From the NCBI GenBank assembly GCA_019057385.1, contig JAHQJS010000006.1, forward strand, positions 613,038 through 677,037: a DNA stretch of 64,000 nt, in the 5' to 3' direction. The translations under genes were made by a program, and so were the position numbers. Below the pieces are notes generated by a model. It did not search any database and had not been told where the DNA came from. It worked only from the letters and a program-made list of their open reading frames with translations. Source of the stretch: Candidatus Borrarchaeum weybense. GTDB lineage: Archaea > Asgardarchaeota > Sifarchaeia > Borrarchaeales > Borrarchaeaceae. Below, one piece after another: positions 5,535 to 63,484 of this stretch. Within the stretch, counting starts at the first letter, position 1. The number at the start of each line of letters is the position of its first letter.

Positions 5535-5867
5535 TTATTTGAAAAGTTGAATAAGTGCAACGAATCTCTCTGTGACGTCTTTTCCTAATTTTGTAATAGT
5601 GTATTCCTCAAGGTTACGAGATTCATCGTAAACCTTTGCTTCTAAAACACCAAGTTCTACTAGAGAATCAATTCTACTACGAATTGTATTATAACTAAAT
5701 TTTCCAAATTCATTCTTAAACTCATGTAAAAGATCTGTGGTTCGCCAAGTCGTTTTCTTTTGAAACATCAAGAGCACTTCAACACTCTTTGATTTCTCGA
5801 AAGCATCTAACATTTGCATTGTTTTTTTGTTTTTGAGATCTGAAATGACTGACAATATCAACACCAA
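5535..5867 (-). CDS. Winged-helix transcription regulator (HxlR/ArsR-like), candidate repressor
   Basis: TIRSRIDSLVELGVLE...EYTITKLG; operator array upstream. Confidence 0.8.
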   Translation of the reverse strand: MVLILSVISDLKNKKTMQMLDAFEKSKSVEVLLMFQKKTTWRTTDLLHEFKNEFGKFSYNTIRSRIDSLVELGVLEAKVYDESRNLEEYTITKLGKDVTERFVALIQLFK

Positions 5868-5925: not shown

Positions 5926-5981
5926 TTGTTATGACAGTTGTGATAACAAAATAAAGGTTTGGTCCTAAATTGTAATAACAA
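5926..5981. promoter_or_regulatory. Operator array, three TTGTNATNACAA-type boxes
   Basis: TTGTTATGACA, TTGTGATAACAA, TTGTAATAACAA; same layout at 26232-26319 (inverted) and 44941-45016. Confidence 0.8.
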
Positions 5982-16725: not shown

Positions 16726-16971
16726 TTATTTGCAACCAAATTCGTCAGAAACTTCTTTTGGAAGACCTTCTATACTGCAAATACCATTTTTCCAAGCGTC
16801 AGGTCCAGCAGTTTTCAGACCTTTAGCGTAGTTTCTGTCCATCTTTGCGGTGTCGGTGGCATTGATGTCGTTAAGGAAGTCCTCTTCGGTAACATTGGCG
16901 ACATTATCTTTCCACTTTGCAATCGTGGATTTTTTTGTCATTTTTGCCTTCCAAGGGCCAGAAATTACCAT
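16726..16971 (-). CDS. Small protein with basic N-terminus, paralog 2; candidate nucleocapsid protein
   Basis: Aligns with 17026-17298: IS.PWK.KMTK.STI.KWK.NV..V.EEDF...I.ATD...MD.N.A.GL...W...IC.I.GLP..V.D.FGC. Confidence 0.8.
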   Translation of the reverse strand: MVISGPWKAKMTKKSTIAKWKDNVANVTEEDFLNDINATDTAKMDRNYAKGLKTAGPDAWKNGICSIEGLPKEVSDEFGCK

Positions 16972-17025
16972 AGTTTTTCCTCCACATTTTTCGTTTTTTT
17001 TAAAACCAAACCAAAAGAAGTAACG

Positions 17026-17298
17026 CTACCAGGTCCTTTTGACATCGATGCAACCAAATGCGTCTCTGACGTCCTGTGGTAATCCGTCTATTCGACAGAT
17101 CGCAGCTGCCCATGGGGCACCATATTCTGATTTATGTACTTTGATAAGTCCGTCTGCCCAATTCTTGTCCATTTCGACAGAATCAGTGGCAGCTATACTG
17201 ACGTTAAAGTCCTCTTCAGAAACCGCATTGACATTTTCCTTCCACTTTTTGATAGTAGAAGACTTAGTCATTTTGTTCTTCCAAGGTTCTGAAATCAT
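17026..17298 (-). CDS. Small protein with basic N-terminus, paralog 1; candidate nucleocapsid protein
   Basis: First gene of the leftward module, TATA-like TTTATATA upstream; paralog of 16726-16971. Confidence 0.8.
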   Translation of the reverse strand: MISEPWKNKMTKSSTIKKWKENVNAVSEEDFNVSIAATDSVEMDKNWADGLIKVHKSEYGAPWAAAICRIDGLPQDVRDAFGCIDVKRTW

Positions 17299-20320: not shown

Positions 20321-20336
20321 CACAAAATATATATAA
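20321..20336 (+). promoter_or_regulatory. Probable promoter of operon 1 (CACAAAATATATA)
   Basis: BRE/TATA-like; same 13-mer at 26341. Confidence 0.65.
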
Positions 20337-20426: not shown

Positions 20427-20450
20427 TAGTCGCATAGTCGCATAGTCGCG
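20427..20450 (+). repeat. (TAGTCGCA)x3 octamer array
   Basis: Tandem octamers; also at 21062-21085 and degenerate at 26646-26669. Confidence 0.9.
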
Positions 20451-20527: not shown

Positions 20528-20600
20528 GGAGCTTATACCATCAACTCAACTCCTGGAGAGCCAACTTATACTTGGGGGGTCACACCCCCCGAGCTCCACC
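20528..20600 (+). ncRNA. tRNA-like element 1 (acceptor stem plus T-arm mimic, no clear D or anticodon arm)
   Basis: GGAGCTT (20528) pairs with GAGCTCC (20591-97), followed by ACC; GGGGG-7 nt-CCCCC arm directly before; tRNA-sized. Confidence 0.6.
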
Positions 20601-20645
20601 CTTAAAAAATTCACTTTTGTATATGGAGCTCATGCTCAGGAGTTT

Positions 20646-20966
20646 ATGAAATTGTATTTGTGTTCTAAATGTGGAACAACTCGCCACACACCCAATTTAT
20701 TTGAAGGTAAACCATACTGTCGTAAGTGTTACAAAAAAGTGATTCAGAAGCCAAAAGGTTGTTCTATCCCTTTAGGGATACCCCCTAAAAATAGAGGTAA
20801 CTATCGAAAAAGTCAGGGTTTACGTAAAAGAAGAATCTGGCGAGTAGTCAGAAATCAATCTGGTGAGATTATAGAAGAAGAGAGAATACCAAACCGCAAA
20901 GGACGTTTTAACCGTCATATCTCTCTAAATATGAAGGATAAACTCACCCCTCAACCCAATCATTAA
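20646..20966 (+). CDS. Zinc-finger protein with basic tail (start revised from 20523)
   Basis: CSKC...PYCRKC; leader motif and AGGAG precede ATG 20646. Confidence 0.7.
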   Translation: MKLYLCSKCGTTRHTPNLFEGKPYCRKCYKKVIQKPKGCSIPLGIPPKNRGNYRKSQGLRKRRIWRVVRNQSGEIIEEERIPNRKGRFNRHISLNMKDKLTPQPNH

Positions 20967-21002
20967 TCTTTTTTTTGTGGAGCTTGGCTCTAAGGTGGCT
21001 AA

Positions 21003-21080
21003 ATGAACCAAAGAGTAATTCTTGAGACCTTACTGAATTTCATTACTCTTGTTGTGGCTATTAGTCGCATAGTCGCATAG
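21003..21080 (+). CDS. 25-aa hydrophobic peptide MNQRVILETLLNFITLVVAISRIVA
   Basis: Preceded by a leader and RBS identical to those of the 23392 gene. Confidence 0.5.
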   Translation: MNQRVILETLLNFITLVVAISRIVA

Positions 21081-21085
21081 TCGCA
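21062..21085 (+). repeat. (TAGTCGCA)x3 octamer array
   Basis: Three exact tandem copies upstream of MCM. Confidence 0.9.
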
Positions 21086-21302
21086 CAAAAAGGAGAGATA
21101 CACCTTGCAAGACAAATTTAATAAGAAAAACGTAACTCTCCGCCTTGTCTTGTGGTATTTTGCAATACACCAAGACGCGAGACTACTAAACTTTGTGGTC
21201 GCGGCGTAATTTGTTCAAGACTACTTAAGTACTTAGGTACATAGGTATCGTCATACCTAAGTAGTCCTCTTTTTTGGAGCTCTAAGGCTCTGGAGTGAAA
21301 TT

Positions 21303-23045
21303 ATGACTGAAGCAATAGAAGAAGCCACAAATCCTGAAAAGGAATGGCTAAAAACTTTAGTTCGAGCGGATTTTGAAAAAACTAAAGAGGATGAAGAACT
21401 TAAACTAAAACCCATAACCTCAGGGATACAATCACTAATCCTTGAATTCTACCAGCGGTTATCCTCGACAGATACACCAGACGAATTCGATCAGTTTTAC
21501 AGTGAAAGACTGAAACAGTATAAAGCAATGCATTTGTTCATCAGTTTCCTTAATGAATATGCGGTTAAATTGGGGTTATCTCCCCGACCAACGGCACCAG
21601 AGTTTTACAGGAATTCACAAGAAGTAGAAAAGTATCTCTTTGAGATTACTGAAGCTACTCTCGGAGAACCACAGACACTTAAAACCTTGCAAGATCAGAT
21701 CAGTGCAAAATATCCCGATCTACTCAGTCAAATCATTAAAAATGAAATTGACAAAACGAACGGGAAATATGAAGATTTTGTCAACAACGAAATGACAGAG
21801 ATTGAGGAGAAAATTGATTTAGGGGTCGAAATAGAACTTGATCCCGTCATCAGTAAACAATTGCAATTAATCGAGGAATCTAAGGGAAAAATTCAGCAAA
21901 TTTCAGCAGAATTAAACAAGATGATTATTCTCGGTGAAACGGTATGGGAATATCTCATCTATGCAATGGTGAGCCCGCACTGCCCACCCTTTTACATCAA
22001 TGGTCTTAAAAAACGTGCTAATTTGCACGTACTTCTGGTGGGCGATATTTCTACAGCAAAGTCAGAAATCATCGACGTTACTGATGAAATAGCCTTTAAG
22101 AGTTTTAAAATAGACGATAGCACACGCGCCGCTATGGAAGGAAAATATACTACTGAAGGAATCGAAGCTGGGGTTATCGACCATGCTAACAATGGCTTGC
22201 TCTGTATTCACGAATTCGATAAAGCCTTGAAGGAGTTTAAATTACTCCGAAGGTGTCTCGATTGCAGAGATTTTACAATTGCGAAAGGCGAGCACATGAA
22301 AATCACTAACATCAACATGACACTTTTCTGTGGAGCCAACCCAACCGATGATTTTTTCCATAAAGAATGTTATCGGGATCAGATCCCCTTTTCAGAGGGG
22401 CTTCTGAGCAGGTTTGATATAACATTGCCCCTCCAATCTACCCCACTACGTAATAACCTCATGCTTGATCGTTTAGACCTCTTTTCCGAAGATAAAATCG
22501 TTGATATTACAAAAACCAAAGAAATCTTAGCAACTTTAATTCATGGCATACAGAAACTCAAAGGCGTTAAAATCGAACAAGAACACCAAAAAATGATAAA
22601 AGAAGTCTTTCGTCTGTATAACATTCGTTTACCACGCCGCCCCTTTGTAATCCTTCGAGACCTCGAAACCATTGCCCGATTTGTCAATGTAATAGCGTCT
22701 GCCAACTTTTATAATAGACAGGTAAAAGACGGCTACGTGTATGCTATAAAAGAGGACATTGAGAAAGCAATTTCCCTATGGGAGGACTTAATGCACCGCC
22801 GCCGACAACTGTACGAAGAAACAGGCGCAAAGAAAGAATTGACAAGCATTGATGACATAATCAAGAAAGAAATCATCATGCACGGTAAAGACCACATTAA
22901 AAGTACGGATCTTTATGAGATAATCGTGGAAAAACTCCATATATGTCACAAAGCGACCTTCTATAGAGCACTAAATCGCATGGAAGCGCAGGGAAAAATA
23001 CAACGTAAAGGCAGGAAAAACGCAACAATCATCCTCAACTCCTAA
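21303..23045 (+). CDS. mcm: MCM-family helicase, divergent
   Basis: HVLLVGDISTAKS (Walker A), LCIHEFDK (Walker B variant), GANP, LLSRFD, RDLE, C-terminal wHTH. Confidence 0.85.
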   Translation: MTEAIEEATNPEKEWLKTLVRADFEKTKEDEELKLKPITSGIQSLILEFYQRLSSTDTPDEFDQFYSERLKQYKAMHLFISFLNEYAVKLGLSPRPTAPEFYRNSQEVEKYLFEITEATLGEPQTLKTLQDQISAKYPDLLSQIIKNEIDKTNGKYEDFVNNEMTEIEEKIDLGVEIELDPVISKQLQLIEESKGKIQQISAELNKMIILGETVWEYLIYAMVSPHCPPFYINGLKKRANLHVLLVGDISTAKSEIIDVTDEIAFKSFKIDDSTRAAMEGKYTTEGIEAGVIDHANNGLLCIHEFDKALKEFKLLRRCLDCRDFTIAKGEHMKITNINMTLFCGANPTDDFFHKECYRDQIPFSEGLLSRFDITLPLQSTPLRNNLMLDRLDLFSEDKIVDITKTKEILATLIHGIQKLKGVKIEQEHQKMIKEVFRLYNIRLPRRPFVILRDLETIARFVNVIASANFYNRQVKDGYVYAIKEDIEKAISLWEDLMHRRRQLYEETGAKKELTSIDDIIKKEIIMHGKDHIKSTDLYEIIVEKLHICHKATFYRALNRMEAQGKIQRKGRKNATIILNS

Positions 23046-23140
23046 TTTTTTTCTCATTACTTAAGTACTTGTAAATGGAGCTTACTTCCAGGAGTAATAT
23101 TTTTAACATAGTCACTACAAAAGTATATACGGTGTTTATA

Positions 23141-23356
23141 TTGATCGAAAAAAAGAAAGTTTATAGATCAGGCAACTCAAAAGCCGTCCTCATACCCGCC
23201 TCTACATTTAAAGCGATGGAGAAACCCGATAAGGTATCAGTTGCTTTTAACGAGGTTATGATAGTTTTTAATGAGGATATGGACATTGAGATGATTAAAT
23301 CTGACATCTTAAACCTTCTCAAGTCAATAGAACTGCGTTATGGGAAGGTTACATAA
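23141..23356 (+). CDS. AbrB/MazE-like protein (start revised from 23075)
   Basis: KKVYRSGNSKAVLIPA. Confidence 0.75.
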   Translation: MIEKKKVYRSGNSKAVLIPASTFKAMEKPDKVSVAFNEVMIVFNEDMDIEMIKSDILNLLKSIELRYGKVT

Positions 23357-23391
23357 TTCTTTTTTGTGGAGCTTGGCTCTAAGGTGGATTT

Positions 23392-23646
23392 ATGGTAATT
23401 AAAGGCGAAGCGCAAACCATGCACCAAGCATGGCAAAAAGCCTTTGTGAATCTCGAAGAAACTATTAAAGAACGAGAAGTCGAACTTAAAAGACTACAAA
23501 CGGCTAAAAAAGAATGTCAGAAAAAACTCACAAAGGCGAATAAACAAACGGTTCTTGAACTAATTGAGACACGAATTGATTACTTACAGAAAAAACTCGA
23601 AAGCGAGAGAAGTATGCTCAATAGTTTAGAACCTTACAACTCTTAA
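23392..23646 (+). CDS. Coiled-coil hypothetical protein
   Basis: Leader motif and RBS; heptad pattern. Confidence 0.75.
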   Translation: MVIKGEAQTMHQAWQKAFVNLEETIKEREVELKRLQTAKKECQKKLTKANKQTVLELIETRIDYLQKKLESERSMLNSLEPYNS

Positions 23647-23692
23647 CCTTTTTTTCCCTTCTTGTGGAGCTATAAGGCTCTGGAGTGAAAAC

Positions 23693-24184
23693 ATGACCTT
23701 AGAATACAAAGGGTTTTTTAAAAACGTAAACTACGAACCCGAAAAGGGAGATTGGATCGAGGTTTTTGCAAGCGATTGGAACAAAGACTATTGGGCATTC
23801 TACGCATACATTCCATTCGAGAACTATGAACAAGGAATTCAAGTGATCAATGACTTGATCGGCGAATTGAATTGGCGAGACGGGGACGTATATATTGAGT
23901 TAATTAATATGAGTCCTGGTCTTGAAAAATTGTATAACAAACTCTACGATGACGGCTATTTTGCTCATTGGTCGGCTCTTAATCCCGACAAATGGCGCGA
24001 ATATTTAGAGGAAATCGAAGAGGAAGAAGCCGAAGAATTTTCCGACTTCAAAGATCAATATTTTAGGAAAAACTGTCAAACAAAATCAATTGAAGAGTGC
24101 GATGAAACGTCTTGCAATGAATCTTGTATAGATGAATGGGCGTATCCTCAACGACCAGATCCATCCCTGTATTACGACCAATAA
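23693..24184 (+). CDS. Acidic hypothetical protein with Cys-rich tail
   Basis: Leader motif and RBS. Confidence 0.75.
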   Translation: MTLEYKGFFKNVNYEPEKGDWIEVFASDWNKDYWAFYAYIPFENYEQGIQVINDLIGELNWRDGDVYIELINMSPGLEKLYNKLYDDGYFAHWSALNPDKWREYLEEIEEEEAEEFSDFKDQYFRKNCQTKSIEECDETSCNESCIDEWAYPQRPDPSLYYDQ

Positions 24185-24229
24185 ATCTCCACCTTTTTTT
24201 TCTTTCATGGAGCTAACAAAGGCTCAGGA

Positions 24230-24619
24230 GTGTTTACTATGAATGTCGAAATCAATTCTTTCGCGGATCTTATATACGTCCTATCTGAATTCGCAAAAGT
24301 TGATAAAAACTACGAATGGCACGTCAGTGAAGACGATGAACGTGTGTATTTAACACATTTCAGATGTGAAACTTCAGAAGCACCAGAATATTTTGTAAAT
24401 GACAGGAAACAAGACTTCAAAAAGTTGTGGGACACCGCATATCAGTACACCTTACGGTGTGCGACTTCTAAGGAAGAACCGAGTTTTGAGGCTCTTTGTA
24501 ATGCGATAAAGAAACAGAACATCGAAATCAGAACGTCGACGGATGAGGAACGGCTTTCCTATGTAGATCGAATCACTGAAATGGACGCTAATATGGAAGA
24601 AGAACTTGCTATGGAGTGA
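24230..24619 (+). CDS. Acidic hypothetical protein
   Basis: Leader motif and RBS; likely start at ATG 24239. Confidence 0.75.
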   Translation: MFTMNVEINSFADLIYVLSEFAKVDKNYEWHVSEDDERVYLTHFRCETSEAPEYFVNDRKQDFKKLWDTAYQYTLRCATSKEEPSFEALCNAIKKQNIEIRTSTDEERLSYVDRITEMDANMEEELAME

Positions 24620-24641
24620 AGATCAGAATTAGGGTGTTTAC

Positions 24642-24776
24642 ATGACAGAAGAACGCGAATTTAGTGTATTTGTCATCTTAAGAAAGATGGCGACAGACCG
24701 CCAAGACGCTTTAGATAAAGTAGATCAGGACATACTCGATAAAGATTTCGAAATTTACGATGTCATTGAATCTTAA
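24642..24776 (+). CDS. 44-aa acidic protein MTEEREFSVFVILRK...
   Basis: GGGTG RBS, open frame, fills the gap between neighbours. Confidence 0.55.
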   Translation: MTEEREFSVFVILRKMATDRQDALDKVDQDILDKDFEIYDVIES

Positions 24777-24869
24777 ACGAGACTACTTAGGTAATTAGGT
24801 ACTTAGGTAATTCCAAACATCTCCTATTTTTTTATGTGTGGAGCTTCAAAAGGCTCTGGAGTGAACAAT

Positions 24870-25814
24870 ATGGTACAAATCAAATTTGATAGTGCAAAAC
24901 TTTGGTCTTCTCTTGTGAAGGGTGTAAATGCTCTCATAAAAGAAGCCGAATTTGAGACCACTAAAGAAGGACTACATCTTCGAGCAATTGATGACGCGCA
25001 CATTGCCATGATCGACTTGGACATACCAAGCGATTCTATGAAAGAATACTCTTTTACTCTTCATGACAAAGAGGCAGACTTCGCGAAATTCGGCATAAAT
25101 ATTACTGAAATGGCTACAATAATGCGACGTATCCCCATTGGAGAAAAATTGACGCTGACATTGGATTCACAAAAAAGCAAATTTCATGTCGTAGCAGACT
25201 CTTTATACACAAAACGACGATTTTCAATTCCTCTCCTAGGTTCAACTTCCGCTGAAGACATTCCTGTACCGAAGATAGACTTTACAACAAAAATCAAACT
25301 TAAAGCAAAGTACCTCAAAGAGGCAATTAAAGACGCCGCTGTGATGGGTGACTATTTAAAACTCAAGACGACTGCCGATAAATTTTCTTTATGGGCAGAA
25401 GGCGATACAGGAAACGTCAGCATAGACTATGAATATGGAGAATCAATCTCTCTTGAGAAACGCGGTGACGCTGTTGGAATTTATGCTTTAAAGTACTTAG
25501 ACGATATGACCGATCCTATCCCTGGCGAATCTGAGGTAAGTATTGAGTTCTCAAATGATATGCCTCTGAAACTTACGTGGATGTTAAACGGCTCAAAACT
25601 AGATTACTACTTAGCTCCACGTATTCCACCCTCGGATGAAGAACCACCAAAAAAAGAGGAAAAGGAACAAGAAAAAACTAAGGATGACACAGAAGAGGAA
25701 AAAGAAACGCACGAAGAAACTAAGGAATTCCCTTGTGACGAGTGCGGAAAGACCTTTACTAGCCAAAGAGGACTTAACACACACATGCGCGTACATAAAG
25801 ACTCTGATGAATAG
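24870..25814 (+). CDS. pcn: PCNA sliding clamp fused to an acidic linker and C2H2 zinc finger
   Basis: GLHLRAIDDAHIAMIDL, YALKYL, DMPLKL, YYLAPRI, then CDECGKTFTSQRGLNTHMRVH; start revised from 24834. Confidence 0.92.
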   Translation: MVQIKFDSAKLWSSLVKGVNALIKEAEFETTKEGLHLRAIDDAHIAMIDLDIPSDSMKEYSFTLHDKEADFAKFGINITEMATIMRRIPIGEKLTLTLDSQKSKFHVVADSLYTKRRFSIPLLGSTSAEDIPVPKIDFTTKIKLKAKYLKEAIKDAAVMGDYLKLKTTADKFSLWAEGDTGNVSIDYEYGESISLEKRGDAVGIYALKYLDDMTDPIPGESEVSIEFSNDMPLKLTWMLNGSKLDYYLAPRIPPSDEEPPKKEEKEQEKTKDDTEEEKETHEETKEFPCDECGKTFTSQRGLNTHMRVHKDSDE

Positions 25815-25883
25815 TCCTTCCTCTATTTTTTCTCGTTACTTAAGTAATTTTTTAAGGAGCTTCTGACTCCAGGGTGTATTTAC

Positions 25884-26168
25884 ATGAACGGATGGAAAAA
25901 AATATGGGATACCGAAGAAAAAGGACTCTACAAAGACAATTCTTTCTCGTTCGTTGATTTTGAGAAAGAGGACTTATATCTATTGATACAAAAGTCTGGT
26001 CCGAGTGGTTGGTATCTTTATTTATTTGAACACGGTAGCCCAAGAACTGTTGGATGGGCTACTACAAAAGAAAAAGCCTTAGAGATAGCTAAGTTTATGA
26101 TGGAAACAGATAATTTCCCACCAGCACATAAGTACTTCAATGCGGATCTTGAACTTTGTAAGTCCTAA
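25884..26168 (+). CDS. Hypothetical protein
   Basis: Leader motif and RBS. Confidence 0.75.
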   Translation: MNGWKKIWDTEEKGLYKDNSFSFVDFEKEDLYLLIQKSGPSGWYLYLFEHGSPRTVGWATTKEKALEIAKFMMETDNFPPAHKYFNADLELCKS

Positions 26169-26231
26169 CATCCTTTTTTTCTAATTCTGTCTGCAAAGTG
26201 CTGCAGGGGCTCAAACCTCCAGGATCAGAAT

Positions 26232-26319
26232 TTGTTATTACAATTCAGGCCCTTACTTTCATTTTGTTATCACATTTGTAATAACATTCTACACCCGGCA
26301 ACTTATTTTGTGATGACAA
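26232..26319. promoter_or_regulatory. Operator array, four TTGTNATNACAA-type boxes upstream of the operon 2 promoter
   Basis: Boxes at 26232, 26264, 26276, 26308; reverse complement matches the 5926-5981 layout. Confidence 0.8.
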
Positions 26320-26340: not shown

Positions 26341-26353
26341 CACAAAATATATA
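26341..26353 (+). promoter_or_regulatory. Probable promoter of operon 2 (CACAAAATATATA)
   Basis: Identical to the 13-mer at 20321. Confidence 0.65.
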
Positions 26354-26376: not shown

Positions 26377-26625
26377 ATGAGACACACACGAAATACATCT
26401 ACAAGGTCGCACCCTTGCTGACCTATTATGTCTCAGAAAAGGAAGGGTCTCCTGCCGCGGGAGTTTGAAACGTCACTCACTTCCCTCCGTGAGTAAGCGG
26501 GCGTGGTCACGACTCGAAATGTGGGTAAAAGTCGTGTAGTGAAGTCAGTGAAACAGAAAACTCATAAAAAGAAAAAACCCTCCTGAGGTAGAAGAACGGG
26601 GGTTCGATTCCCCCAAGCTCCTCCC
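26377..26625 (+). ncRNA. Structured leader RNA ending in a canonical T-arm and acceptor 3' strand (tRNA-like element 2)
   Basis: GGGGG-TTCGATT-CCCCC (26598-614) then AAGCTCC (26615-21); hairpins TGAGACA/TGTCTCA, ACTCAC/GTGAGT, CACGACT/AGTCGTG; possible cis 5' strand GGAGTTT at 26460. Confidence 0.65.
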
Positions 26626-26748
26626 TCAAAAATTAAAGACTAGCGTAGCCGCATAGTCATATAGTCGCAAATATTATTTATACGTGGAGCTTAATAAATT
26701 TAATGGAACGGGAGTTTTTACTTCAGAACTACTTAGGTAGTGCGAAAT

Positions 26749-27690: not shown

Positions 27691-27742
27691 GTACCTAAGT
27701 ACTCATGTTTGTTTTATTTTTTCTTTTCATGGAGCTTCAATC

Positions 27743-29461
27743 ATGAAGGCTCTACCACAAACAGGAGGAATTCAAATTTCGTGGATACATGAATTTTTTG
27801 AGAAATATCGTGCCCAAATAACACCCCTCAGTATCACACATTTCAATATCGAGGATTTCCCGCAACTTTTTACTGCAAAAGTAAATGGGAAAACTCTTCC
27901 TGGATATTTTGAATTCGTAATTGAGTATGATATTGGATCGGGGTTATGTCCTTTTGAACCACAAAAAACAGACTCTGAACAACTTACAACAGATGAAGAC
28001 AGCTCTGAACAAATTACAATGACCGACAAACTACGTCAAGAATATGCGAAGTTTATACAGTCAGACGAAGTTTATGAACTACCTGTTGATCCCGTAGAAA
28101 CGCTGAACTTTATCCGCTATTTATTCCGCGAATATAAGGGGCTTTTTGTTCTTTATGATTGCGAAACAATAGCACCTGACAGTTCGGCGGCACACATGAC
28201 GCTACAGGATCGTCAATGTTCGCAACTACTTAAAAATTTAGCATTAGACCACAAAATTCGCAAAAAAGGAAGCGCAATCATAGTGACTGCCGAGAGGCTT
28301 GAGGATATTGCCCAAAAAGTCCGAAAGGTAGCTAATATCATTGAAATTCCGCTTCCTGACGATACATCACGAAAGAAAGTGTTTGAACAAGCAACTGAAA
28401 AAGTCGCTTATAATCCTAAGGACTTGGATCAATGGGTAGTCGGATCGAAAGGTTTGACAATCAAAGAACTTAAGTCGATCATAGTTGAACTTTATCAGAA
28501 AGACACCACAATTATGTTAGGTGACTTCTATGATCAAAAAGCGAAAAAGTTAGAGAAGTACGACATGGTCTCTTTAGAGAATCCAAAGTTCGGATTCGAG
28601 GGCTTAGTTCTACCAGACTACTTAAGTACTTTCCTTAAGACCTTCATAATAAAGCCATATCAACAAGCTATGCAAATTCGTCCAAAAGGGATCTTGTTCA
28701 CAGGACCACCAGGCACAGGGAAATCAGTGTTGGCGGAAGTAATAGCCTACGAACTTAACAGACCGTTGATTACCGTTGACGCAAGTAATTTACTCTCTCA
28801 ATATGTCGGGGAGAGTGAGAAACGGACTGCTCAATTTTTCCGAGTAATCAGACAATTTGGTGAGGCAGTTGTCCTTATTGATGAAGCCGAAGAATTACTC
28901 AGCGAGCGATCTACAGCAGTCAACACTGATAGCGGTGTGACATCCAATTTGAAGGCAACCTTTCTTCATGAAATGGCGAGAGATCATGGAGTATTGTTTA
29001 TACTCAATACTAATTATCCAATGAAACTCGATGCTGCCATGGTTCGTGTGGGCAGAATTAATTACAAAATACCACTTTTGCCACCATTTACCGCTGAAGA
29101 ACGGGCTAAAATACTTCGTGTGGTGTTAGATGTTCAATTAAAAGTCCCATACGATAAGAACATAGATTTTGAAGCAATTGCCGCAACACTTCAGGGATAC
29201 ACAGGCGCAGAATTACGAGAATTAGCAAGTGTAGCATGGGCTATTGCTTGTGTTGAAAATGACAAAGAAAAAACCGAGCAGGAAGATTTTGATGTCGCAA
29301 AAACGGTGTTTCTACCCGATACGCGAAAGATCAAAGAAATGACCGCCGACGCACTTTCAGTAGTGAATGACAAAAGGCTTTTGCCGCCACAACTCCACAA
29401 AGAAAAAGAAAAGAAGGTTCAAGAGTTTCAAGAAGGCACTTGGGATTCACTCTTTCAATAA
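27743..29461 (+). CDS. AAA ATPase, Ycf46/Cdc48-like (degenerate N-terminal plus active C-terminal AAA)
   Basis: GILFTGPPGTGKS, YVGESEK, VLIDEAE, LDAAMVRVGR; true start may be ATT 27776. Confidence 0.88.
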   Translation: MKALPQTGGIQISWIHEFFEKYRAQITPLSITHFNIEDFPQLFTAKVNGKTLPGYFEFVIEYDIGSGLCPFEPQKTDSEQLTTDEDSSEQITMTDKLRQEYAKFIQSDEVYELPVDPVETLNFIRYLFREYKGLFVLYDCETIAPDSSAAHMTLQDRQCSQLLKNLALDHKIRKKGSAIIVTAERLEDIAQKVRKVANIIEIPLPDDTSRKKVFEQATEKVAYNPKDLDQWVVGSKGLTIKELKSIIVELYQKDTTIMLGDFYDQKAKKLEKYDMVSLENPKFGFEGLVLPDYLSTFLKTFIIKPYQQAMQIRPKGILFTGPPGTGKSVLAEVIAYELNRPLITVDASNLLSQYVGESEKRTAQFFRVIRQFGEAVVLIDEAEELLSERSTAVNTDSGVTSNLKATFLHEMARDHGVLFILNTNYPMKLDAAMVRVGRINYKIPLLPPFTAEERAKILRVVLDVQLKVPYDKNIDFEAIAATLQGYTGAELRELASVAWAIACVENDKEKTEQEDFDVAKTVFLPDTRKIKEMTADALSVVNDKRLLPPQLHKEKEKKVQEFQEGTWDSLFQ

Positions 29462-29558
29462 TTTCCTCTTTTTTTTCTTTATCACTACTTAGGTAATTGT
29501 GTTCATTTTTAGAGGGGCTTCTTCTCCAGGAAGCTACTAACTTTAATGAGGAAAAAAG

Positions 29559-30059
29559 TTGAGTAAATATCTCGAAGTAAAAACTCAATTCAAAAGTATG
29601 GCACATCTTATCGAGGCATTAACATCAATCTATGGCTACGGTACAGTCAAAGCGGGTAAAAATTTACCTCTCAAGGATTATCTTGGCAATATACGACCAG
29701 AAAAGGCAGATATCGTAGTACCAAGACGCTTCATTCATCCAGCGTCAAACGATCTTGGATTCAAGAAAAATGAAAACGGTGTTTATACCATGATTATCTC
29801 AGAATTTGACGAAGTAGTAGCATCAATGACTCCCCAAAGACTCGCTAATGAACTTAATTTGTATGGTCCGCCATATTCGACTCAATGCAAAGGAATTCCG
29901 AATACTGAGATAAAGAAACAATACAATCTCAGTTTTATCAGAGACTTTGCCAAGAAAAACCGTTGGAATCTGTCATTGACAGACAAAGAAACTCATTTTG
30001 AAGTTCGTTTGAAACGAAGAGTGACTGTTTCCGCAAAAGCAAGGAGGTCTGCCAGATGA
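29559..30059 (+). CDS. DUF1257 (Ycf35)-like protein
   Basis: MSKYLEVKTQFK...LIEAL...ADIVV...NDLGFKKNENGVY; follows a Ycf46-like ATPase. Confidence 0.75.
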   Translation: MSKYLEVKTQFKSMAHLIEALTSIYGYGTVKAGKNLPLKDYLGNIRPEKADIVVPRRFIHPASNDLGFKKNENGVYTMIISEFDEVVASMTPQRLANELNLYGPPYSTQCKGIPNTEIKKQYNLSFIRDFAKKNRWNLSLTDKETHFEVRLKRRVTVSAKARRSAR

Positions 30060-30262
30060 CACAAGAAGAGCAGATCTTCTTCAAAATCGACAAAAAGACA
30101 GGTAACTTGACAATCGAAGGCAAAGGATTCGAAGGACCGATCTGTGAAGACGTTTTAAAGTCATTTGAAGAGTTAGGAGAGATAACACATGACAAAAGAA
30201 CACCAGAGTACTATAAAAAACCTCGACAAGTCCAAACAACCCGCCAACGACTTAGACATTAA
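30056..30262 (+). CDS. DUF2997-like protein
   Basis: GKGFEGPIC...EELG...TPEYY. Confidence 0.75.
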   Translation: MTQEEQIFFKIDKKTGNLTIEGKGFEGPICEDVLKSFEELGEITHDKRTPEYYKKPRQVQTTRQRLRH

Positions 30263-30448
30263 AATAAAAACAATAATTCGCATTGAGGACGATGGAACAG
30301 TCATTTTTTGCGATATTCCAACTGAGTTAATCCCTTTAGCCTTAGCATTGCGGGGCGATTAATTTCTCTTTTTTTTCTTATTATTTAGGTAATTCGTTAG
30401 GATGGAGCTTCTTCGTTGAGAGGCTACCAACTTCAGGAGAAAACCAAG

Positions 30449-31591
30449 ATGTCAGATACGAAAAACATTTCCATTTCTGTTAATGAAATGGATGTTCTTC
30501 TGAATGGTCAACGAATAGATCTTCATATCTCGTCAGGAGATATGTTTAGTCAATCTAAGTTGAATAAATTGCTCTACAAAGGATATAAAAGGCTTTCATC
30601 AACAATGGTGAAAACTTATACAAACGGCGATACTCTCACGCTTGATTCAATCAAGACAAAAGCACATGAACTAAGGCAGAAATACTGTTTCAGGTTATTT
30701 GAAAACAGCGTTGAAGACAACAGAGGGGCTGTATATTTTTGTCCCGAGTCTCTGACCGAAAAGTTGCGCAAAGACCTACGGGAACTCAAAAAGGAATATA
30801 AAAAGACACTTGAGTTTATTGGCAAAATCAGAGATACTTTGAATGAAGAAATCTTTAGTTTTTACAGTGAGCATTGTATTTATTGCGGGCGACCTGTGAA
30901 AGAAGAAAAGGCGGGAAAGATCATAAAATTGCGATGCACAGGCGATGATTCGCATATATTCACTAAAAAACTCATGGATCATTGGTTAGAACAAAATAAG
31001 TCGGTGATAGAAGTACCCTCGTTAGAGGAGATTAAAGCGCGAAAGAGATTTTATTATCGCTTCAGCAAATATTTTTTCCCCACTGAAGAACTCACTGACA
31101 ACTTAGTTGATACACAACTTAAACAGCAAAAGCAAAAAATGTATCAGGCAGAATTATCTACATGCAAGTCTGCAATAAAAAAACAGTTATGGCAAAAGAT
31201 GAAGTTAATCCTTGAATACATAGATGATCGGCTTTCAAAAAGAGAAAAACTTCGTGCAGACCAACTTGATAAAATCAAGAATGATTTAGATGCATTAGAA
31301 GAACTAAATAAAAGCACCTTCAAAATTCCTCAGATTTCTAATTCTATAGACAATCTCAATGCACAGATTGCAGACAAAGAAGCTGCACTGAAAGTTTTGA
31401 CAAACATCTCGAAGAACATCGAAAAGAAAATCAAAGAAGCTGAAGAAAATGAAAATATTGCGATGGATCTAATAGACAAATTAGAGGACATCGACATAGA
31501 AATTGGTACAGAAACGCTTGAACTAGAACAAAAAGAAGCAGTTGAAATTGAACTTGGTGACCAGAAAGAAGAGATTTTTTCTACAAATTAG
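30449..31591 (+). CDS. Coiled-coil protein with zinc-ribbon insert (possibly DUF3150-like)
   Basis: GAVYFCPE, CIYC...C..H; start revised to the ATG after AGGAG. Confidence 0.7.
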   Translation: MSDTKNISISVNEMDVLLNGQRIDLHISSGDMFSQSKLNKLLYKGYKRLSSTMVKTYTNGDTLTLDSIKTKAHELRQKYCFRLFENSVEDNRGAVYFCPESLTEKLRKDLRELKKEYKKTLEFIGKIRDTLNEEIFSFYSEHCIYCGRPVKEEKAGKIIKLRCTGDDSHIFTKKLMDHWLEQNKSVIEVPSLEEIKARKRFYYRFSKYFFPTEELTDNLVDTQLKQQKQKMYQAELSTCKSAIKKQLWQKMKLILEYIDDRLSKREKLRADQLDKIKNDLDALEELNKSTFKIPQISNSIDNLNAQIADKEAALKVLTNISKNIEKKIKEAEENENIAMDLIDKLEDIDIEIGTETLELEQKEAVEIELGDQKEEIFSTN

Positions 31592-31682
31592 TTTAAATCA
31601 AATCTTAGTACCTAGGTACTAAGAAATATTTTTCAATTTTTTATTTTTATGTGGGGCTTCATGGCTCAGGGGTGAACAAACT

Positions 31683-31880
31683 ATGCCTATAGATTCATGG
31701 CAAGAGTTCATTGAAACGATCAAAGGGCTTCTAATTGGTTGCGGTATAGATATTATTATTGTGTCTTTCTATATTCCAGAAGTCCGCAATGATCTCAATT
31801 ATTGGGTTCTCACACCAATACTCATCATCTTAGACTTTCTTGTGCGCTTTGTGAGAACCTTTTTTATTTTTTTATTATGA
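31683..31880 (+). CDS. Small two-TM protein
   Basis: Leader motif and GGGGTG RBS; hydrophobic. Confidence 0.7.
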   Translation: MPIDSWQEFIETIKGLLIGCGIDIIIVSFYIPEVRNDLNYWVLTPILIILDFLVRFVRTFFIFLL

Positions 31881-31930
31881 GGGGCTTCTTCTCCAGGAAG
31901 AACGCTACCAACTTTTTGTGAGGGATTAAT

Positions 31931-32221
31931 ATAAGACAACGAAAAAAGATTCAACTTCTGAGGGTCTCTCCAGTCACACGAATGAGACTTGTCAAAAAGT
32001 TCTTGAGAGAAAACGCGCCTACCGCGTTCACAGCACAAGAGTTAGCAATGGAGTTCAATGTTTCCGTGTCGCTAATGAGGAATATTTTAGTTCCACTTTT
32101 CATGGATAACGATGAAATCGAACGCTTAAGTGAGAAACGCTTTTACAAGTATAAATGCGTTGAAAAAACGACAGAAGGACAAGAACCCGAAACACAAGAA
32201 GAAGTAATCACGACTACTTAA
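31931..32221 (+). CDS. Small winged-helix protein (probable ATA start; ATG at 31982)
   Basis: FTAQELAMEFNVSVSLMRNIL; stop codon lies inside TACTTAAGTA. Confidence 0.7.
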   Translation: MRQRKKIQLLRVSPVTRMRLVKKFLRENAPTAFTAQELAMEFNVSVSLMRNILVPLFMDNDEIERLSEKRFYKYKCVEKTTEGQEPETQEEVITTT

Positions 32222-32547
32222 GTACTGACGTAAGTTCCACCCGAAAGATAAGTTCGTGTGGAAATAGACGTATATCTTTTAGCACGTTCGCAGAAATAAT
32301 ATTCTCCTTAGTTTTTATGGGCGAGTGGACTCATACCTAACTCCCTATTATTTCGACTGGAGACCTATTTTTTAGGTTTTGTGTATTACTTTTTAAGTAT
32401 CAAGAACTAATCCCTTATTTTTTCTTTTTCTCATCGGTTGTTAATTGCATTTTGGGAGATCGTAGAGGAGAGAGGAGATAAGAGAGTAAAATAAGTGAGG
32501 GGCTTTTCCCATTGTGGGATTGGCTACTAAAATCAGGAGGAAACGCT

Positions 32548-32838
32548 ATGGCAACACAAATTGAAGTTCCAAAATCCATGAATATATGGATGCGTATAGA
32601 CGTTGCGTGTTGTGCAGACTTAACGAAAGAAGAAAACAAGTGTGCAATGTGCGGAGAATCTGATAAACGTCTCGCGGTGTTCGAGTTTAGGACAACGAGG
32701 CATCATGGACACATTGACGACAAAGGATCTTCCTGGAATATTCCTTCGAGGGGCTTAATCTGTGAAGGATGTTCTAACGAGATCGAAATAGAGATCGTAC
32801 AAGTGCTCAAGAAGTATCTGTGGCAAAAGGAGGACTAA
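32548..32838 (+). CDS. Zinc-finger protein
   Basis: CAMC...ICEGC; AGGAGG RBS. Confidence 0.7.
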   Translation: MATQIEVPKSMNIWMRIDVACCADLTKEENKCAMCGESDKRLAVFEFRTTRHHGHIDDKGSSWNIPSRGLICEGCSNEIEIEIVQVLKKYLWQKED

Positions 32839-33389
32839 CATTGCCGATGATGAGTTTTACTGAATACAAGTTGCTACCAAATCTACTGCTGAGAACGAAA
32901 TGTCAAACCATTCGACCAGAACGACTGAAATGGGACTTACATGTGGGTGACTTGGTCCATAATTACTGGGAGGTACGTCGCTCACTTGAAACAAAAATAA
33001 TTGCCGGGATTCCACACTTCTTAGGATTCTCACAGATTACATCGTTGTCCAAAAAACGAATTAAAGACATGGATGATGAAATAGCGAAGAAAGATGGCTT
33101 CAGTTCTTACAATGAGATGATAGAGTGGTTTACAAACAAGTACAAAAGAAGGTTTGGCGAACTCTACTTATTAGACATCCCTTTTCAGATTATTGAGTTC
33201 GACTGGTTACACGTCTTCATACCTGAATGGCAACACTATACGAGAGAAAAAATCTGGGAACTAAGACGCAAACACGTCAAGAAGAATAAGAAAGGCGGAG
33301 GCTACGTCTTTGTAGAAGAACCTACGCTGGAGGTCAAGATCAACAAAAGACCCACGCCATATAGCGGCGGCTACCCCATTCCGTTTTAA
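32820..33389 (+). CDS. ASCH (PUA-like) domain protein
   Basis: KCQTIR...VGD...IAKKDGFSSYNEMIEWF. Confidence 0.8.
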   Translation: MAKGGLTLPMMSFTEYKLLPNLLLRTKCQTIRPERLKWDLHVGDLVHNYWEVRRSLETKIIAGIPHFLGFSQITSLSKKRIKDMDDEIAKKDGFSSYNEMIEWFTNKYKRRFGELYLLDIPFQIIEFDWLHVFIPEWQHYTREKIWELRRKHVKKNKKGGGYVFVEEPTLEVKINKRPTPYSGGYPIPF

Positions 33390-33402
33390 AGTGGTGAACA
33401 CA

Positions 33403-33564
33403 ATGCGACAAAGACGAATAACCGAACTATATGCCACCCCTATCCAAGTAAAAGAACCATGCCCCATTTGTGGGGGTCGATTCATACCTGGATTTGCAAT
33501 GTGGTGGCCTCATACCCCACAAATACTGATTTGTACCTCGTGTTGTTTCATAAAGAACCTATAA
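33403..33564 (+). CDS. 53-aa zinc-ribbon protein
   Basis: GGTGA RBS; CPICGG...CTSC. Confidence 0.6.
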   Translation: MRQRRITELYATPIQVKEPCPICGGRFIPGFAMWWPHTPQILICTSCCFIKNL

Positions 33565-33676
33565 TCCCTTTTTTTATTTTTTAATGAATATTCGTGACTA
33601 CTTAGGTAATTTCGTTCATTTTTAGAGGGGCTTCTTCTCCAGGAAGCTACTAATTTTCCCAGGAGGAAAATACACG

Positions 33677-35488
33677 GTGACTAAGATAAACGAGTCATTT
33701 AGACAAACGATTCGTAGGGCTATAAAAATAAAAATAGAGACAGAGAAAATCGACAAAGAAGAAGGCTTACCACAGACATTTGACAAAGTGCCTTACAAGT
33801 TCTTAAATGCGCTTTTAGACCTAAAACTGCCACCAGACCGACCTTTCATCTGGAAAGAAAACGAATCGAATTTACATTTGTACCCTTTCTTATTTGAGAA
33901 AGGACAGTTATCCATTGCTGGCCTTCGATGTCTGACGCTTATTGATGAATACATGAACTGTAAGACCGTACAGAAACCTAAAAAACTCAGAACTATTAAA
34001 ACAAGTCTTTTTTATAATATGTTCAAACCACTACTAAGTAGATTTGGACTGCTAACACCAAAACGGCTGACTACGAAGTGGACAGAAAATCAGTACAGTG
34101 CTGTGACGGGTACACTGAGCCAATTAGTTATGCTTGGTGCTTTAGGGATCAACTATGATGACATGATGATTAATAAGGACACCGACGTTAAATACCGCCT
34201 AGACTATCCTATATTTCGAGAGAAATACAAGGATAACGTAGTAAAGTACACTAAATTAACGGGGAGAAATTTTTGTGTGCTTACACCAGAGCACCTACAG
34301 AAGCCTTCGACACGGCAACCATTCAAAATACCAATAGTCTTCCTAGAAAAACGCGGTCAGTATGAAAACGCAATCAGCATAAGCAATCTATTCTCAGTCA
34401 GCATGTTTGCTACCAAAGGCATGTCACCGACCACTTTCCTGTGTCATCTTAATGAATACTTAGATGACCAGTATGACCATGTGCTGTTAGTAATTAGTGA
34501 CTACGACCCCAGTGGTGAAAAAGACATACCAAATTCATTGAAAAAACGCGCTGAAATTCTTGAAATGCCTATCAGTGAAGTTAAAAGGATAGGTATTTTC
34601 AGAGATCAAATAAGCGATAAAGAATATCTGGAAAAGAGAGTTCTTATACCTCTCTCAAAGAAAAAATGGATAGAAGAAAAAGCCATTGAGACTGAAGAAA
34701 TTGTTGAAAATAAGAAAACACATCTCTATGGGTACGGACTTCAAATGGATGCACTAGGCGAAGAACGGTTGCGGAAAATAGCAGCCGAAGGAGTACAAGA
34801 ATATTTATCACAGGAACTATATGTAGACTTCATTAAACAACAACAAAGAGATGAATTTAATGCATGGGAAGTTGTAAGTGGCATCGCAACATATATTTAC
34901 AACGTCGATCCTGTCATAGTTAATTTTGAAAGACAAATCACAGGAATCAAACACAGAATCTACAATCTGACAGACGAAAAAGATGAGAAGACATTAGATA
35001 TTAGATTAGCAGTGGAGAGCATAGAAGACGAACTACAACGACTTAAAGATGATTATTACTCAAAAATAGAACGTCTTAATGAACTTGCAGATGAAAGAAC
35101 TGCTGATTTAACTGTAGACATAGAAGTGCTGCGTGAAAAGAAACAAGAAAGAGTAGTGATGTCTGAAGAACATAAATACGACCTACAGGAACGTCTAAAA
35201 ATGATTGTAAAAACGCTTGCAAATATAGACGGGTATGATGACCGTATATGTGTAAAATCTATGGTAGAACAGGCTGTCAAAGACAATGAAACATTTAATC
35301 ATGGTCTTAAAATCGTAGACTTATATCCAAAACTAAAAAGTGACATTTCCAGAGACTTCAATCATCCTAACATCTGTCCATTTTGTAATACCGTATCTAA
35401 CTGTTATCTTGTGATAGACGGAAAACAAATACGGTATTGTGAAGACTGTGATACTGAAATCATAAAACTTAGTGATCTGTTAGCCTAA
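33677..35488 (+). CDS. Topo VI-A/JetD-like TOPRIM protein with coiled coil and C-terminal zinc ribbon
   Basis: VFLEK, TKG, SDYDPSG, KRIGI, QMDAL; CPFC...CEDC. Confidence 0.78.
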   Translation: MTKINESFRQTIRRAIKIKIETEKIDKEEGLPQTFDKVPYKFLNALLDLKLPPDRPFIWKENESNLHLYPFLFEKGQLSIAGLRCLTLIDEYMNCKTVQKPKKLRTIKTSLFYNMFKPLLSRFGLLTPKRLTTKWTENQYSAVTGTLSQLVMLGALGINYDDMMINKDTDVKYRLDYPIFREKYKDNVVKYTKLTGRNFCVLTPEHLQKPSTRQPFKIPIVFLEKRGQYENAISISNLFSVSMFATKGMSPTTFLCHLNEYLDDQYDHVLLVISDYDPSGEKDIPNSLKKRAEILEMPISEVKRIGIFRDQISDKEYLEKRVLIPLSKKKWIEEKAIETEEIVENKKTHLYGYGLQMDALGEERLRKIAAEGVQEYLSQELYVDFIKQQQRDEFNAWEVVSGIATYIYNVDPVIVNFERQITGIKHRIYNLTDEKDEKTLDIRLAVESIEDELQRLKDDYYSKIERLNELADERTADLTVDIEVLREKKQERVVMSEEHKYDLQERLKMIVKTLANIDGYDDRICVKSMVEQAVKDNETFNHGLKIVDLYPKLKSDISRDFNHPNICPFCNTVSNCYLVIDGKQIRYCEDCDTEIIKLSDLLA

Positions 35489-35624
35489 GTACACAGATCA
35501 CATTTTGTATTTCCTTCTTTTTTTCCATATCTAACTACCTAAGTATTTTTGATTATTTTTGGAGGGGCTTATCTCCTGCTCTACAATTACAGGAGAAGGT
35601 CACTAATCTCCCAGGAGGAATACT

Positions 35625-44940: not shown

Positions 44941-45016
44941 TTGTTATTACAAGTGTAATAACAAAGTAGTAAGTTGTGATAACGAAATAGTTCCTGGTCC
45001 AGAATTGTTATCACAA
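44941..45016. promoter_or_regulatory. Operator array, four TTGTNATNACAA-type boxes
   Basis: Boxes at 44941, 44953, 44974, 45005; shares the TGGTCC-AATTGT spacer with 5926-5981. Confidence 0.8.
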
Positions 45017-62308: not shown

Positions 62309-63484
62309 TTATTTTTTAGTTTCTTTTTCAAGTATTTTAACGAAAAGTCCCTCTAATATTTCAAAACGATTAGTGAGAGCCTCTAATTTTTCTTGTTGCA
62401 CATCTCGTTCCTGTGTTGTCGATTTCAATCTTTCTTCTAACTGTTTAACAAGTTCACTTTCTTCGCGTACCTGTTCTTCAAGTTCTCTGGTATCTATAGA
62501 GATCGAGAGATATGGTTCTGCATTTTTGAAGTTTTTAATCATTTCTTTTTCAGTGTATTCATCATACGCGCCATCATAAGGTAGTGTCTGTCCCATACTC
62601 ATTTTTACTTGTTCAAAAGGCATCCATTGTTTTGCAACGCTTGAGAAGGCTTTTCTTATCGCGTGGAAGCCATACGGGTTAAATTTCCCATATTCTTTCA
62701 GTTCTTGAAACGTGACTATTTTTCCTTCGTATTTGGTCGACGGTATTCCTGCTTTAACGATCGTTTTTCGCATCTCTAATTGAGCGGTTCTTTTGGAAAT
62801 TCGTGCTCTTACTTTAAGATTACGAACAGAACCAAACAGAGGACTTTCAAAGAAAAGTTCTTCTCCTCTTTCTCTCTGCCATCGAACATATTGACGGAGT
62901 GTATCAATAGAATCTTTGCCTATCACTGCTTTTGCTTTTGTTTTTGTCTTAGAGCGCGTATATTCTATTACATGATACTGTTTGTCATTCTCTATTGCGG
63001 CACTCACATCTCCGTAATTAAGCCTGAGCATCGAACTTATATCCATCCCGGTCTGAAACGCGAGGATAATGAGGGTTTTTCCCCGCCAATCAGGGGAGGC
63101 CTCATAAAGTTTTCTGATCTCTTCTTTTCTATATACTGCCCTCTTATATTTTCGTGCGTTAGAACGTCGTTGTGATTTAATTCGAATTTCGTGGTAAGTT
63201 AAAAACGATTTGACTGCGTCTTCGTGGTTTGAAGCGGTTTTATCTGAGAGCCCTTGATCGAGTAAGTGTTTATAGAATATATTGAGTTTTGTTTTCGTTT
63301 TAACTTTGTTCTTTTTTGCTTCTTCGAGGAATTCATAAGGAGAAATCCCAAAAAAATGAAAGAATTTCTTGAGTTTGGTCCGATATTGTTTCTTAGTTGA
63401 TTCTTTCCTCCCCGCGAGAAACTCCTCTACATTTTCATACTTTTTAACCCATTCTTTAGAACTTACTTCTGTAATGGCAGTCAT
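62309..63484 (-). CDS. Tyrosine recombinase / integrase
   Basis: SAM-like N-terminal domain, R.KT, HAIRK, MGQ, GAY; C-terminal coiled coil. Confidence 0.9.
   Translation of the reverse strand: MTAITEVSSKEWVKKYENVEEFLAGRKESTKKQYRTKLKKFFHFFGISPYEFLEEAKKNKVKTKTKLNIFYKHLLDQGLSDKTASNHEDAVKSFLTYHEIRIKSQRRSNARKYKRAVYRKEEIRKLYEASPDWRGKTLIILAFQTGMDISSMLRLNYGDVSAAIENDKQYHVIEYTRSKTKTKAKAVIGKDSIDTLRQYVRWQRERGEELFFESPLFGSVRNLKVRARISKRTAQLEMRKTIVKAGIPSTKYEGKIVTFQELKEYGKFNPYGFHAIRKAFSSVAKQWMPFEQVKMSMGQTLPYDGAYDEYTEKEMIKNFKNAEPYLSISIDTRELEEQVREESELVKQLEERLKSTTQERDVQQEKLEALTNRFEILEGLFVKILEKETKK

Follow-up and report, generated by a model that had tools for sequence, protein, structure and literature searches.

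The window, a 64,000-nt stretch of the Candidatus Borrarchaeum weybense genome, holds an integrated element of ~60 kb whose genes encode MCM-like, PCNA, RuvB-like, AAA and primase proteins, a restriction-modification module and a tyrosine integrase (62309-63484). As neither att sites nor a recognisable capsid (no PHROGs match) were found, the element is referred to as provirus-like. Its PCNA homologue (24870-25814) ends in a C2H2 zinc finger and possesses an acidic linker. A membrane-protein-rich module is headed by a pair of small paralogous genes (81 and 90 aa; 16726-17298, minus strand); by eye, their products recall the helical capsid proteins of filamentous archaeal viruses, for which PHROGs and the Atlas gave no support, and Atlas look-ups of the 90-aa protein at 17026 and of a 94-aa protein at 25884 returned no usable family. 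A 10-nt palindrome-like motif, TACYTARGTA, occurs in ~30 intergenic copies between 4114 and 62103 and hardly elsewhere in the genome, and is probably the binding site of an element protein.

The host is archaeal, with an archaeal 16S rRNA, RNase P RNA and CCA-adding enzyme, and also encodes RNase Z. It possesses a tRNA-Pyl gene (CUA; contig C7, 143743-143811; ARAGORN). Its tRNA gene set is otherwise intron-rich, and the intron-less tRNA gene clusters on contig C1 (107-253, 19435-19896, 74513-74748, 161784-161929) possibly represent another mobile element.

The features considered here lie in the middle of the element (Table 1). Each of two replication-type operons is predicted to begin with an RNA of ~250 nt, the last ~50 nt of which would form the 3' half of a tRNA, arranged as pairing arm, short linker, T-arm and acceptor strand (guide 1 and guide 2), while the leaders of the genes behind would provide the matching 5' half.

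Table 1. Positions in the window of the guides, leaders and control sequences of the two operons.
Feature	Position	Strand	Details
Operon-1 promoter 13-mer	20321..20333	+	Same motif as 26341-26353
Self-leader	20528	+	Upstream of guide 1
Guide 1	20546..20601	+	Second arm CUCCUG 20550-20555 and AGAGCC 20557-20562; hairpin 20574-20590; acceptor strand GAGCUCC 20591-20597; discriminator A; CCC
Ten operon-1 leaders	20625..26230	+	Starts 20625, 20979, 21276, 23077, 23368, 23666, 24209, 24840, 25856, 26206
Operator array before operon 2	26233..26318	+	Four TGTNATNACA palindromes, at 26233, 26265, 26277, 26309
Promoter 13-mer with TATA box	26341..26353	+	Identical to 20321-20333
5' structured domain of RNA2	26377..26574	+	Hairpins 26378-26435, 26473-26551, 26508-26536
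Guide 2 second arm	26577..26594	+	CUCCUG 26580-26585 (anti-Shine-Dalgarno-like) and GGUAG 26587-26591
Guide 2 T-arm	26598..26614	+	5-bp stem, canonical loop (sequence, Rfam comparison, folding)
Guide 2 acceptor 3' strand	26615..26625	+	AAGCUCC 26615-26621, discriminator U 26622, CCC (sequence)
First operon-2 leader	26686..26726	+	GGAGCUU (acceptor 5' strand) and 12-nt strand 26715-26726 pairing with the second arm; topology of a permuted tmRNA precursor
Eight further operon-2 leaders	27731..35610	+	Starts 27731, 29514, 30404, 31653, 31881, 32499, 33627, 35564

A tRNA-like 3' half at the head of operon 2

The sequence-only reading had described exact tRNA 3'-half geometry at 26598-26625, and the T-stem, the canonical loop and the 7-nt acceptor-type strand are all present there. 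On inspection, a 5-bp G/C stem (26598-26602 with 26610-26614) encloses the loop UUCGAUU, with a T-arm pairing probability of 0.95-0.97 in folding, and the acceptor-type strand AAGCTCC is followed, behind the discriminator, by CCC and no CCA. The operator array and the TATA-containing 13-mer (26341) were likewise found directly upstream of the RNA as described, and transcription of this RNA (RNA2) probably starts near 26377. Within its 5' domain, which diverges by 2.0% in strain L035, positions 26452-26463 are able to pair with the second arm of guide 2 itself (self-target).

Arrays of TGTNATNACA were also detected at 5927-5980 and 44942-45015, before a winged-helix-like gene (5535-5867, minus strand) and a small gene at 45005, and the genes behind the three arrays, including operon 2, likely form one regulon. 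Tandem TAGTCGCA repeats (20427-20445, 21062-21085, 26646-26669) lie near both guides and in the 20966-21303 spacer. The second arm of guide 2 resembles a degenerate TACYTARGTA copy.

The RNA had been proposed to be a tRNA mimic rather than a tmRNA, and both the Rfam comparison and the lack of a detectable SmpB agree with this. No full Rfam match had been expected, and the scores for tmRNA (RF00023, 18.5 bits) and tmRNA_permuted (RF04321, 18.6 bits) were indeed below the gathering cut-off of 47, while ARAGORN found 0 genes within the window. SmpB (PF01668) had 0 matches in a genome rated 100% complete, with positive controls in 10 bacteria, and no tag-like reading frame was found, the candidate frames being shifted by a 1-nt deletion in strain L035. 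A tRNA gene, whether plain, intron-containing, split or permuted, was rejected, as neither a D-arm consensus nor an anticodon arm nor a bulge-helix-bulge was present. An att scar, which would have been an exact copy of a host tRNA 3' end, was rejected as well: the longest match elsewhere in the host genome was 14 nt, no host tRNA 3' end or T-arm carries this acceptor strand (in a host tRNA list that is possibly incomplete), and the site lies in mid-element.

The two closures suggested for the acceptor strand fared differently. In normal order, with GGAGTTT at 26460, closure had a probability of ~0 and cost 10 kcal/mol over the free fold. In permuted order, the pairing with GGAGCTT at 26686 is perfect as described, and it adds a 12-bp helix (26583-26594 with 26715-26726) located 3 nt from the T-arm, but closure costs 2 kcal/mol and has a probability of only 0.13-0.16. 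Rather than two alternative partners, the acceptor strand has ~19, of which 26686 is one leader copy, and the picture of a self-contained RNA was incomplete, since leaders precede the element's genes and a second guide lies at 20546-20601.

Leaders of the element's genes and the second guide

The complement of the guides' acceptor strand (RAGCUCC) is GGRGCU(Y). Between 20.5 and 36 kb, 20 copies of GGRGCU were counted in 2,744 non-coding plus-strand bases (0.52 expected, P = 6e-25; the non-coding mask rests on the gene list made in this analysis), and the region contains 25 copies on the plus strand against 3 on the minus strand. Most of the 20 non-coding copies stand just before ribosome-binding sites, in leaders with a common layout: a U-tract, GGRGCU, a short hairpin, a Shine-Dalgarno sequence and usually a start codon. 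The eight further operon-2 leaders show this order with GGRGCUU and mostly a CUACY before the Shine-Dalgarno. The variable leader positions are mainly those that tolerate wobble pairing, namely position 3 (A or G, facing U70) and position 7 (C only in operon 1, facing G66); leaders 23666 and 24209 carry an A at position 7, a mismatch with the guide. Leader 26206 has no gene behind it, and a strain has a 1-nt deletion there.

In folding, the leaders form a weak local hairpin without the guide, and none contains AGCUCC as a perfect local partner. They are partly duplicated cassettes, whole leaders having been copied, and are therefore not independent of each other. Two other explanations of the motif were rejected. 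Separate TATA promoters do not account for the leaders, which have no TATA at a fixed distance and of which two begin 12 nt behind a stop codon, and an rRNA-pairing motif does not either, as RAGCYCC is absent from the host 16S region.

The tRNA-like half of guide 1 (20574-20601) possesses a T-arm-like hairpin with the non-canonical loop GUCACAC, and in folding guide 1 can adopt a longer hairpin that takes up part of its acceptor strand. Both halves are located downstream of the same 13-nt promoter motif, at distances of 253 and 257 nt, and both guides have CUCCUG upstream of the T-arm and a similar trailer. Among all perfect GC-rich hairpins of 5 bp and 7 nt on both strands of the 4.18-Mb genome (n = 424), ranked by the local excess of sequences complementary to the heptamer behind the hairpin, the arms at 26598 and 20574 ranked second and third (13 seen against 1.9 expected, p = 1.5e-7 each), behind a real tRNA. 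Three AGCYCC occur on the plus strand of the region, two of them immediately behind a perfect 5-bp/7-nt hairpin. In 400 genomes of the phylum, the pattern of an anti-Shine-Dalgarno arm (CUCCU), a T-arm and an acceptor strand matched only these two sites.

A 24-mer of guide 2 is identical to the 3' half of tRNA genes at six unrelated metagenome loci, five of which are tRNA-Ala, and some Asgard tRNA-Ala 3' ends are two bases away from it. This identity, as well as the local folding of the leaders without a guide, would be expected of a relic or coincidence, that is, of a captured 3' fragment of a tRNA-Ala or tmRNA in front of ordinary repeated expression cassettes (terminator, hairpin, ribosome-binding site). 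Such an origin is improbable, as two independent halves stand almost equally far from the same promoter motif and the second is not tRNA-identical, yet complementary to the leaders; moreover, no host tRNA matches, the integrase gene is 36 kb away from the tRNA-like half, and the guide cores are invariant in the strain (see next Section).

Predicted guide-leader pairing and conservation of the guides

Cofolding gave an acceptor stem, a T-hairpin and a second helix in all 19 cognate guide-leader pairs (computed), and a four-way cloverleaf for leaders 30404, 31881 and 32499. The second helix covers the Shine-Dalgarno in most hybrids, both arms running on over it. Bulges of 3 to 8 nt occur on one strand, and in many hybrids -1:73 and -2:74 also pair, so that the helix extends across the predicted cut site. 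Concerning the second arm, the AGAGCC of guide 1 matches GGCUC(U) in six of the ten operon-1 leaders and its CUCCUGGAG matches three more, while GGUAG in guide 2 is the complement of CUACY, which was found in eight of the nine operon-2 leaders and in none of the ten of operon 1 (p = 1e-4; 0.005 without duplicates).

The calculated binding of leaders to their own guide was stronger by ~6 kcal/mol than that of host sites sharing the heptamer (-13.1 and -14.9 against -7.2 and -9.1 kcal/mol; p = 1.5e-6 and 1.7e-5), and when the arms were shuffled with CUCCUG kept, the observed energy was matched 4 and 3 times in 1000. The guide of the own operon was modestly preferred (p = 0.002-0.006; 0.03-0.08 without near-duplicates). 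For the second arm alone, whose boundaries were picked after inspection of the data and part of which is simply anti-Shine-Dalgarno, operon specificity was not significant (p = 0.13). For host sites with the motif, the average calculated binding was weak, and no such site was conspicuous as a leader. A function for guide-leader pairing of some kind is quite probable.

Pairing could also be confined to the first leader behind each half (20625 and 26686), on the model of a permuted tmRNA precursor, with RNase Z and RNase P separating the 5' RNA from its operon and the other leaders being copied hairpin cassettes bound by a protein. Both first leaders do pair perfectly, with a compensatory difference between the operons (GAGCUCC/GGAGCUC and AAGCUCC/GGAGCUU); the helix 20591 x 20624 has a probability of 0.99, 26686 brings the 12-bp helix together with a tmRNA-like linker of 3 nt, and whole leaders have been duplicated. 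Punctuation in cis only is nevertheless given a low probability, as the distal leaders, too, match the second arm, using different segments, with binding that is equally good or better, and as CUACY tracks operon 2.

DNA contigs from four sequencing runs confirmed the sequence and a strain of it. In a ~95% identical strain, which is present in other sediment runs, the guide cores showed 0 changes in 107 positions, against 5.1% in the flanks (p = 0.004) and 3.3% in the non-coding flanks (p = 0.03); one of the strain's differences, 20987 G>A, disrupts a pair of the second helix. On a 63.7-kb contig from another assembly lies a copy of 24.3-33.6 kb with 98.6% identity. In that copy, the 603-aa gene at 33677-35488 (weak topoisomerase match) is replaced by genes for an HNH protein and an M48 peptidase (L088:9305-10714), and the breakpoint adjoins a TACYTARGTA site at ~33611; modules may be exchanged by means of these repeats.

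Beyond the copies of 95-99% identity (L035, L088, L090, L091), no relatives were found. A DNA search in 60 related genomes, like pattern searches across collections of viral, metagenome and genome sequences, turned up nothing except ordinary tRNA genes or chance matches, and MCM profile scans revealed no other element. The examined stretches around RuvB-like and MCM-like homologues (31-49% identity) contained no guide-leader arrangement; behind the RuvB-like homologue in genome G011 lies, at ~2.4 kb, a CRISPR array (L029:3313-4640). As no distant relative was found, true covariation across lineages is missing.

Possible roles of the hybrids and known systems

The split tRNA mimic arrangement is real and conserved, and apparently undescribed. 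With a probability of about 0.5, the guides would be natural external guide sequences (EGS) directing host RNase P to the polycistronic mRNAs of the element, so that a tRNA mimic split between two guide RNAs and ~19 mRNA leaders would enlist host RNase P (and RNase Z) in cutting and gating the element's transcripts. The RNAs would be transcribed, and tRNase Z would free each guide behind its discriminator. As no leader has a perfect local partner, the guide is proposed to open the leader hairpin by strand exchange, taking both of its strands. The hybrid would be tRNA-shaped, with the acceptor stem stacked on the T-arm and the second helix over the Shine-Dalgarno, and host RNase P would cut before G1 of each bound leader, as with engineered EGS. 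The long transcript would thereby become single-gene mRNAs with a U-tract at the end and, at the start, a hairpin beginning exactly at the cut; translation would be blocked while the guide is bound and would occur after it leaves. Maturation is somewhat favoured over destruction as the outcome, because G1 is where the hairpin of the leader begins and because no gene follows site 26206.

Several features are those of an EGS. The guides contribute a T-arm and an acceptor 3' strand and pair in two segments in all 19 computed cognate cofolds, and the RNase P that an EGS depends on is present in the host (RNase P RNA, RF00373, 207.9 bits; Pop5/Rpp14). All leaders have G+1 and 12 of the 19 have U-1, which is a favoured RNase P context (PMC3378863). 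The canonical T-loop of an EGS is present in guide 2, whereas the loop of guide 1 counts against guided cleavage, as changes in the T-loop inactivate engineered EGS (PMC4693268). So do the longer hairpin that guide 1 can adopt, the position-7 mismatch of two leaders, the second-helix pair disrupted in the strain, the partial duplication of the leaders and the low probability of the cis helix with 26686. The pairs -1:73 and -2:74 also count against it, because a helix running over the cut site can shift or slow RNase P cleavage.

These extra pairs would favour binding over cutting, as expected in the main rival to guided cleavage, which is itself rather unlikely: antisense repression, in which the guide blocks the Shine-Dalgarno or promotes termination and the tRNA-like end serves only the guide's own maturation and stability. 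The guide would then be an immunity RNA or an early-to-late timer like P4 CI RNA or P1/P7 C4 RNA. CI and C4 RNAs act as antisense RNAs. They are also phage RNAs processed by RNase P (PMC5499578), and in the present element the second helix covers the Shine-Dalgarno in most hybrids, and guide 2 is located behind an operator array, within the leader of its matching operon. However, repression alone leaves unexplained the exact acceptor-on-T-arm geometry from G1 onwards, site 26206 has no conserved gene behind it, and one guide per transcript for 9-10 targets suggests turnover. Even without a cut, this archaeal mobile element would have a multi-target antisense switch of an unusual kind.

Alternatively, the hybrid could be trimmed by RNase P and RNase Z, receive CCA, be aminoacylated and enter the ribosome like a two-piece tmRNA, switching ribosomes onto the element's genes. 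The topology equals that of permuted tmRNA (PMC3985003), and six of the nine operon-2 leaders, all distal, would give G3.U70. In terms of the tmRNA identity set (G3.U70, A73, CCA), the site instead has A3-U70 with both 26686 and 26460, U73 and CCC. Since G3.U70 leaders go with the U73 guide and A3 leaders with the A73 guide, full alanine identity is mostly avoided. The genome lacks SmpB, the genes have their own Shine-Dalgarno and start codon, and no tag frame is conserved (frameshift in strain L035), all of which makes a charged hybrid highly improbable.

Two-piece tmRNA (RF04321; PMC3985003) shares with this system an upstream acceptor piece, a downstream coding piece, an acceptor stem with a long second helix, a 3-nt linker and a similar 3' sequence. 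It differs in the features already described (18.6 bits against a cut-off of 47, no SmpB or tag frame, A3-U70 with the first leader, U73, no CCA) and in that many coding pieces with normal start signals are present here.

In the split or permuted tRNA genes of archaea such as Nanoarchaeum, 5' and 3' halves pair with a flanking helix into a cloverleaf; here there is no anticodon loop, bulge-helix-bulge or D-loop consensus, and the 5' halves are mRNA leaders.

As predicted for the guides, P4 CI and P1/P7 C4 RNAs pair with their targets in separate segments. They are small phage RNAs cut from the leader of the operon they control and processed by RNase P, but have no T-loop equivalent (PMC5499578) and only one or two targets, whereas here the guide-target hybrid itself is the tRNA mimic; the C4 and CI Rfam families had no match at E <= 10 or E <= 5. 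With mascRNA/menRNA (PMC3001073) and mitochondrial tRNAs, a long transcript bears a tRNA-like fold as the mark of an RNase P cut, as proposed here, but that fold is complete and local, while here it would be assembled from two distant pieces, one half being shared.

As an engineering method, external guide sequences go back decades. Literature searches, of limited coverage, retrieved neither a natural EGS with multiple targets nor an RNA of this kind from archaeal viruses. If confirmed, guided cleavage would represent a form of RNA-guided mRNA control that works without a dedicated effector protein and would show how archaeal polycistronic transcripts can become single-gene messages, and the 19 natural guide-target pairs offer material for probing what archaeal RNase P accepts in trans. 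In engineered EGS (PMC4693268), as here, the guide consists of a T-arm and an acceptor 3' strand, the target of a 5' leader and an acceptor 5' strand; with the second helix, the whole amounts to about three quarters of a tRNA. Unlike these, the present system is natural and encoded with its targets, has one guide per 9-10 sites and places the Shine-Dalgarno under the second helix, and its cleavage is predicted.
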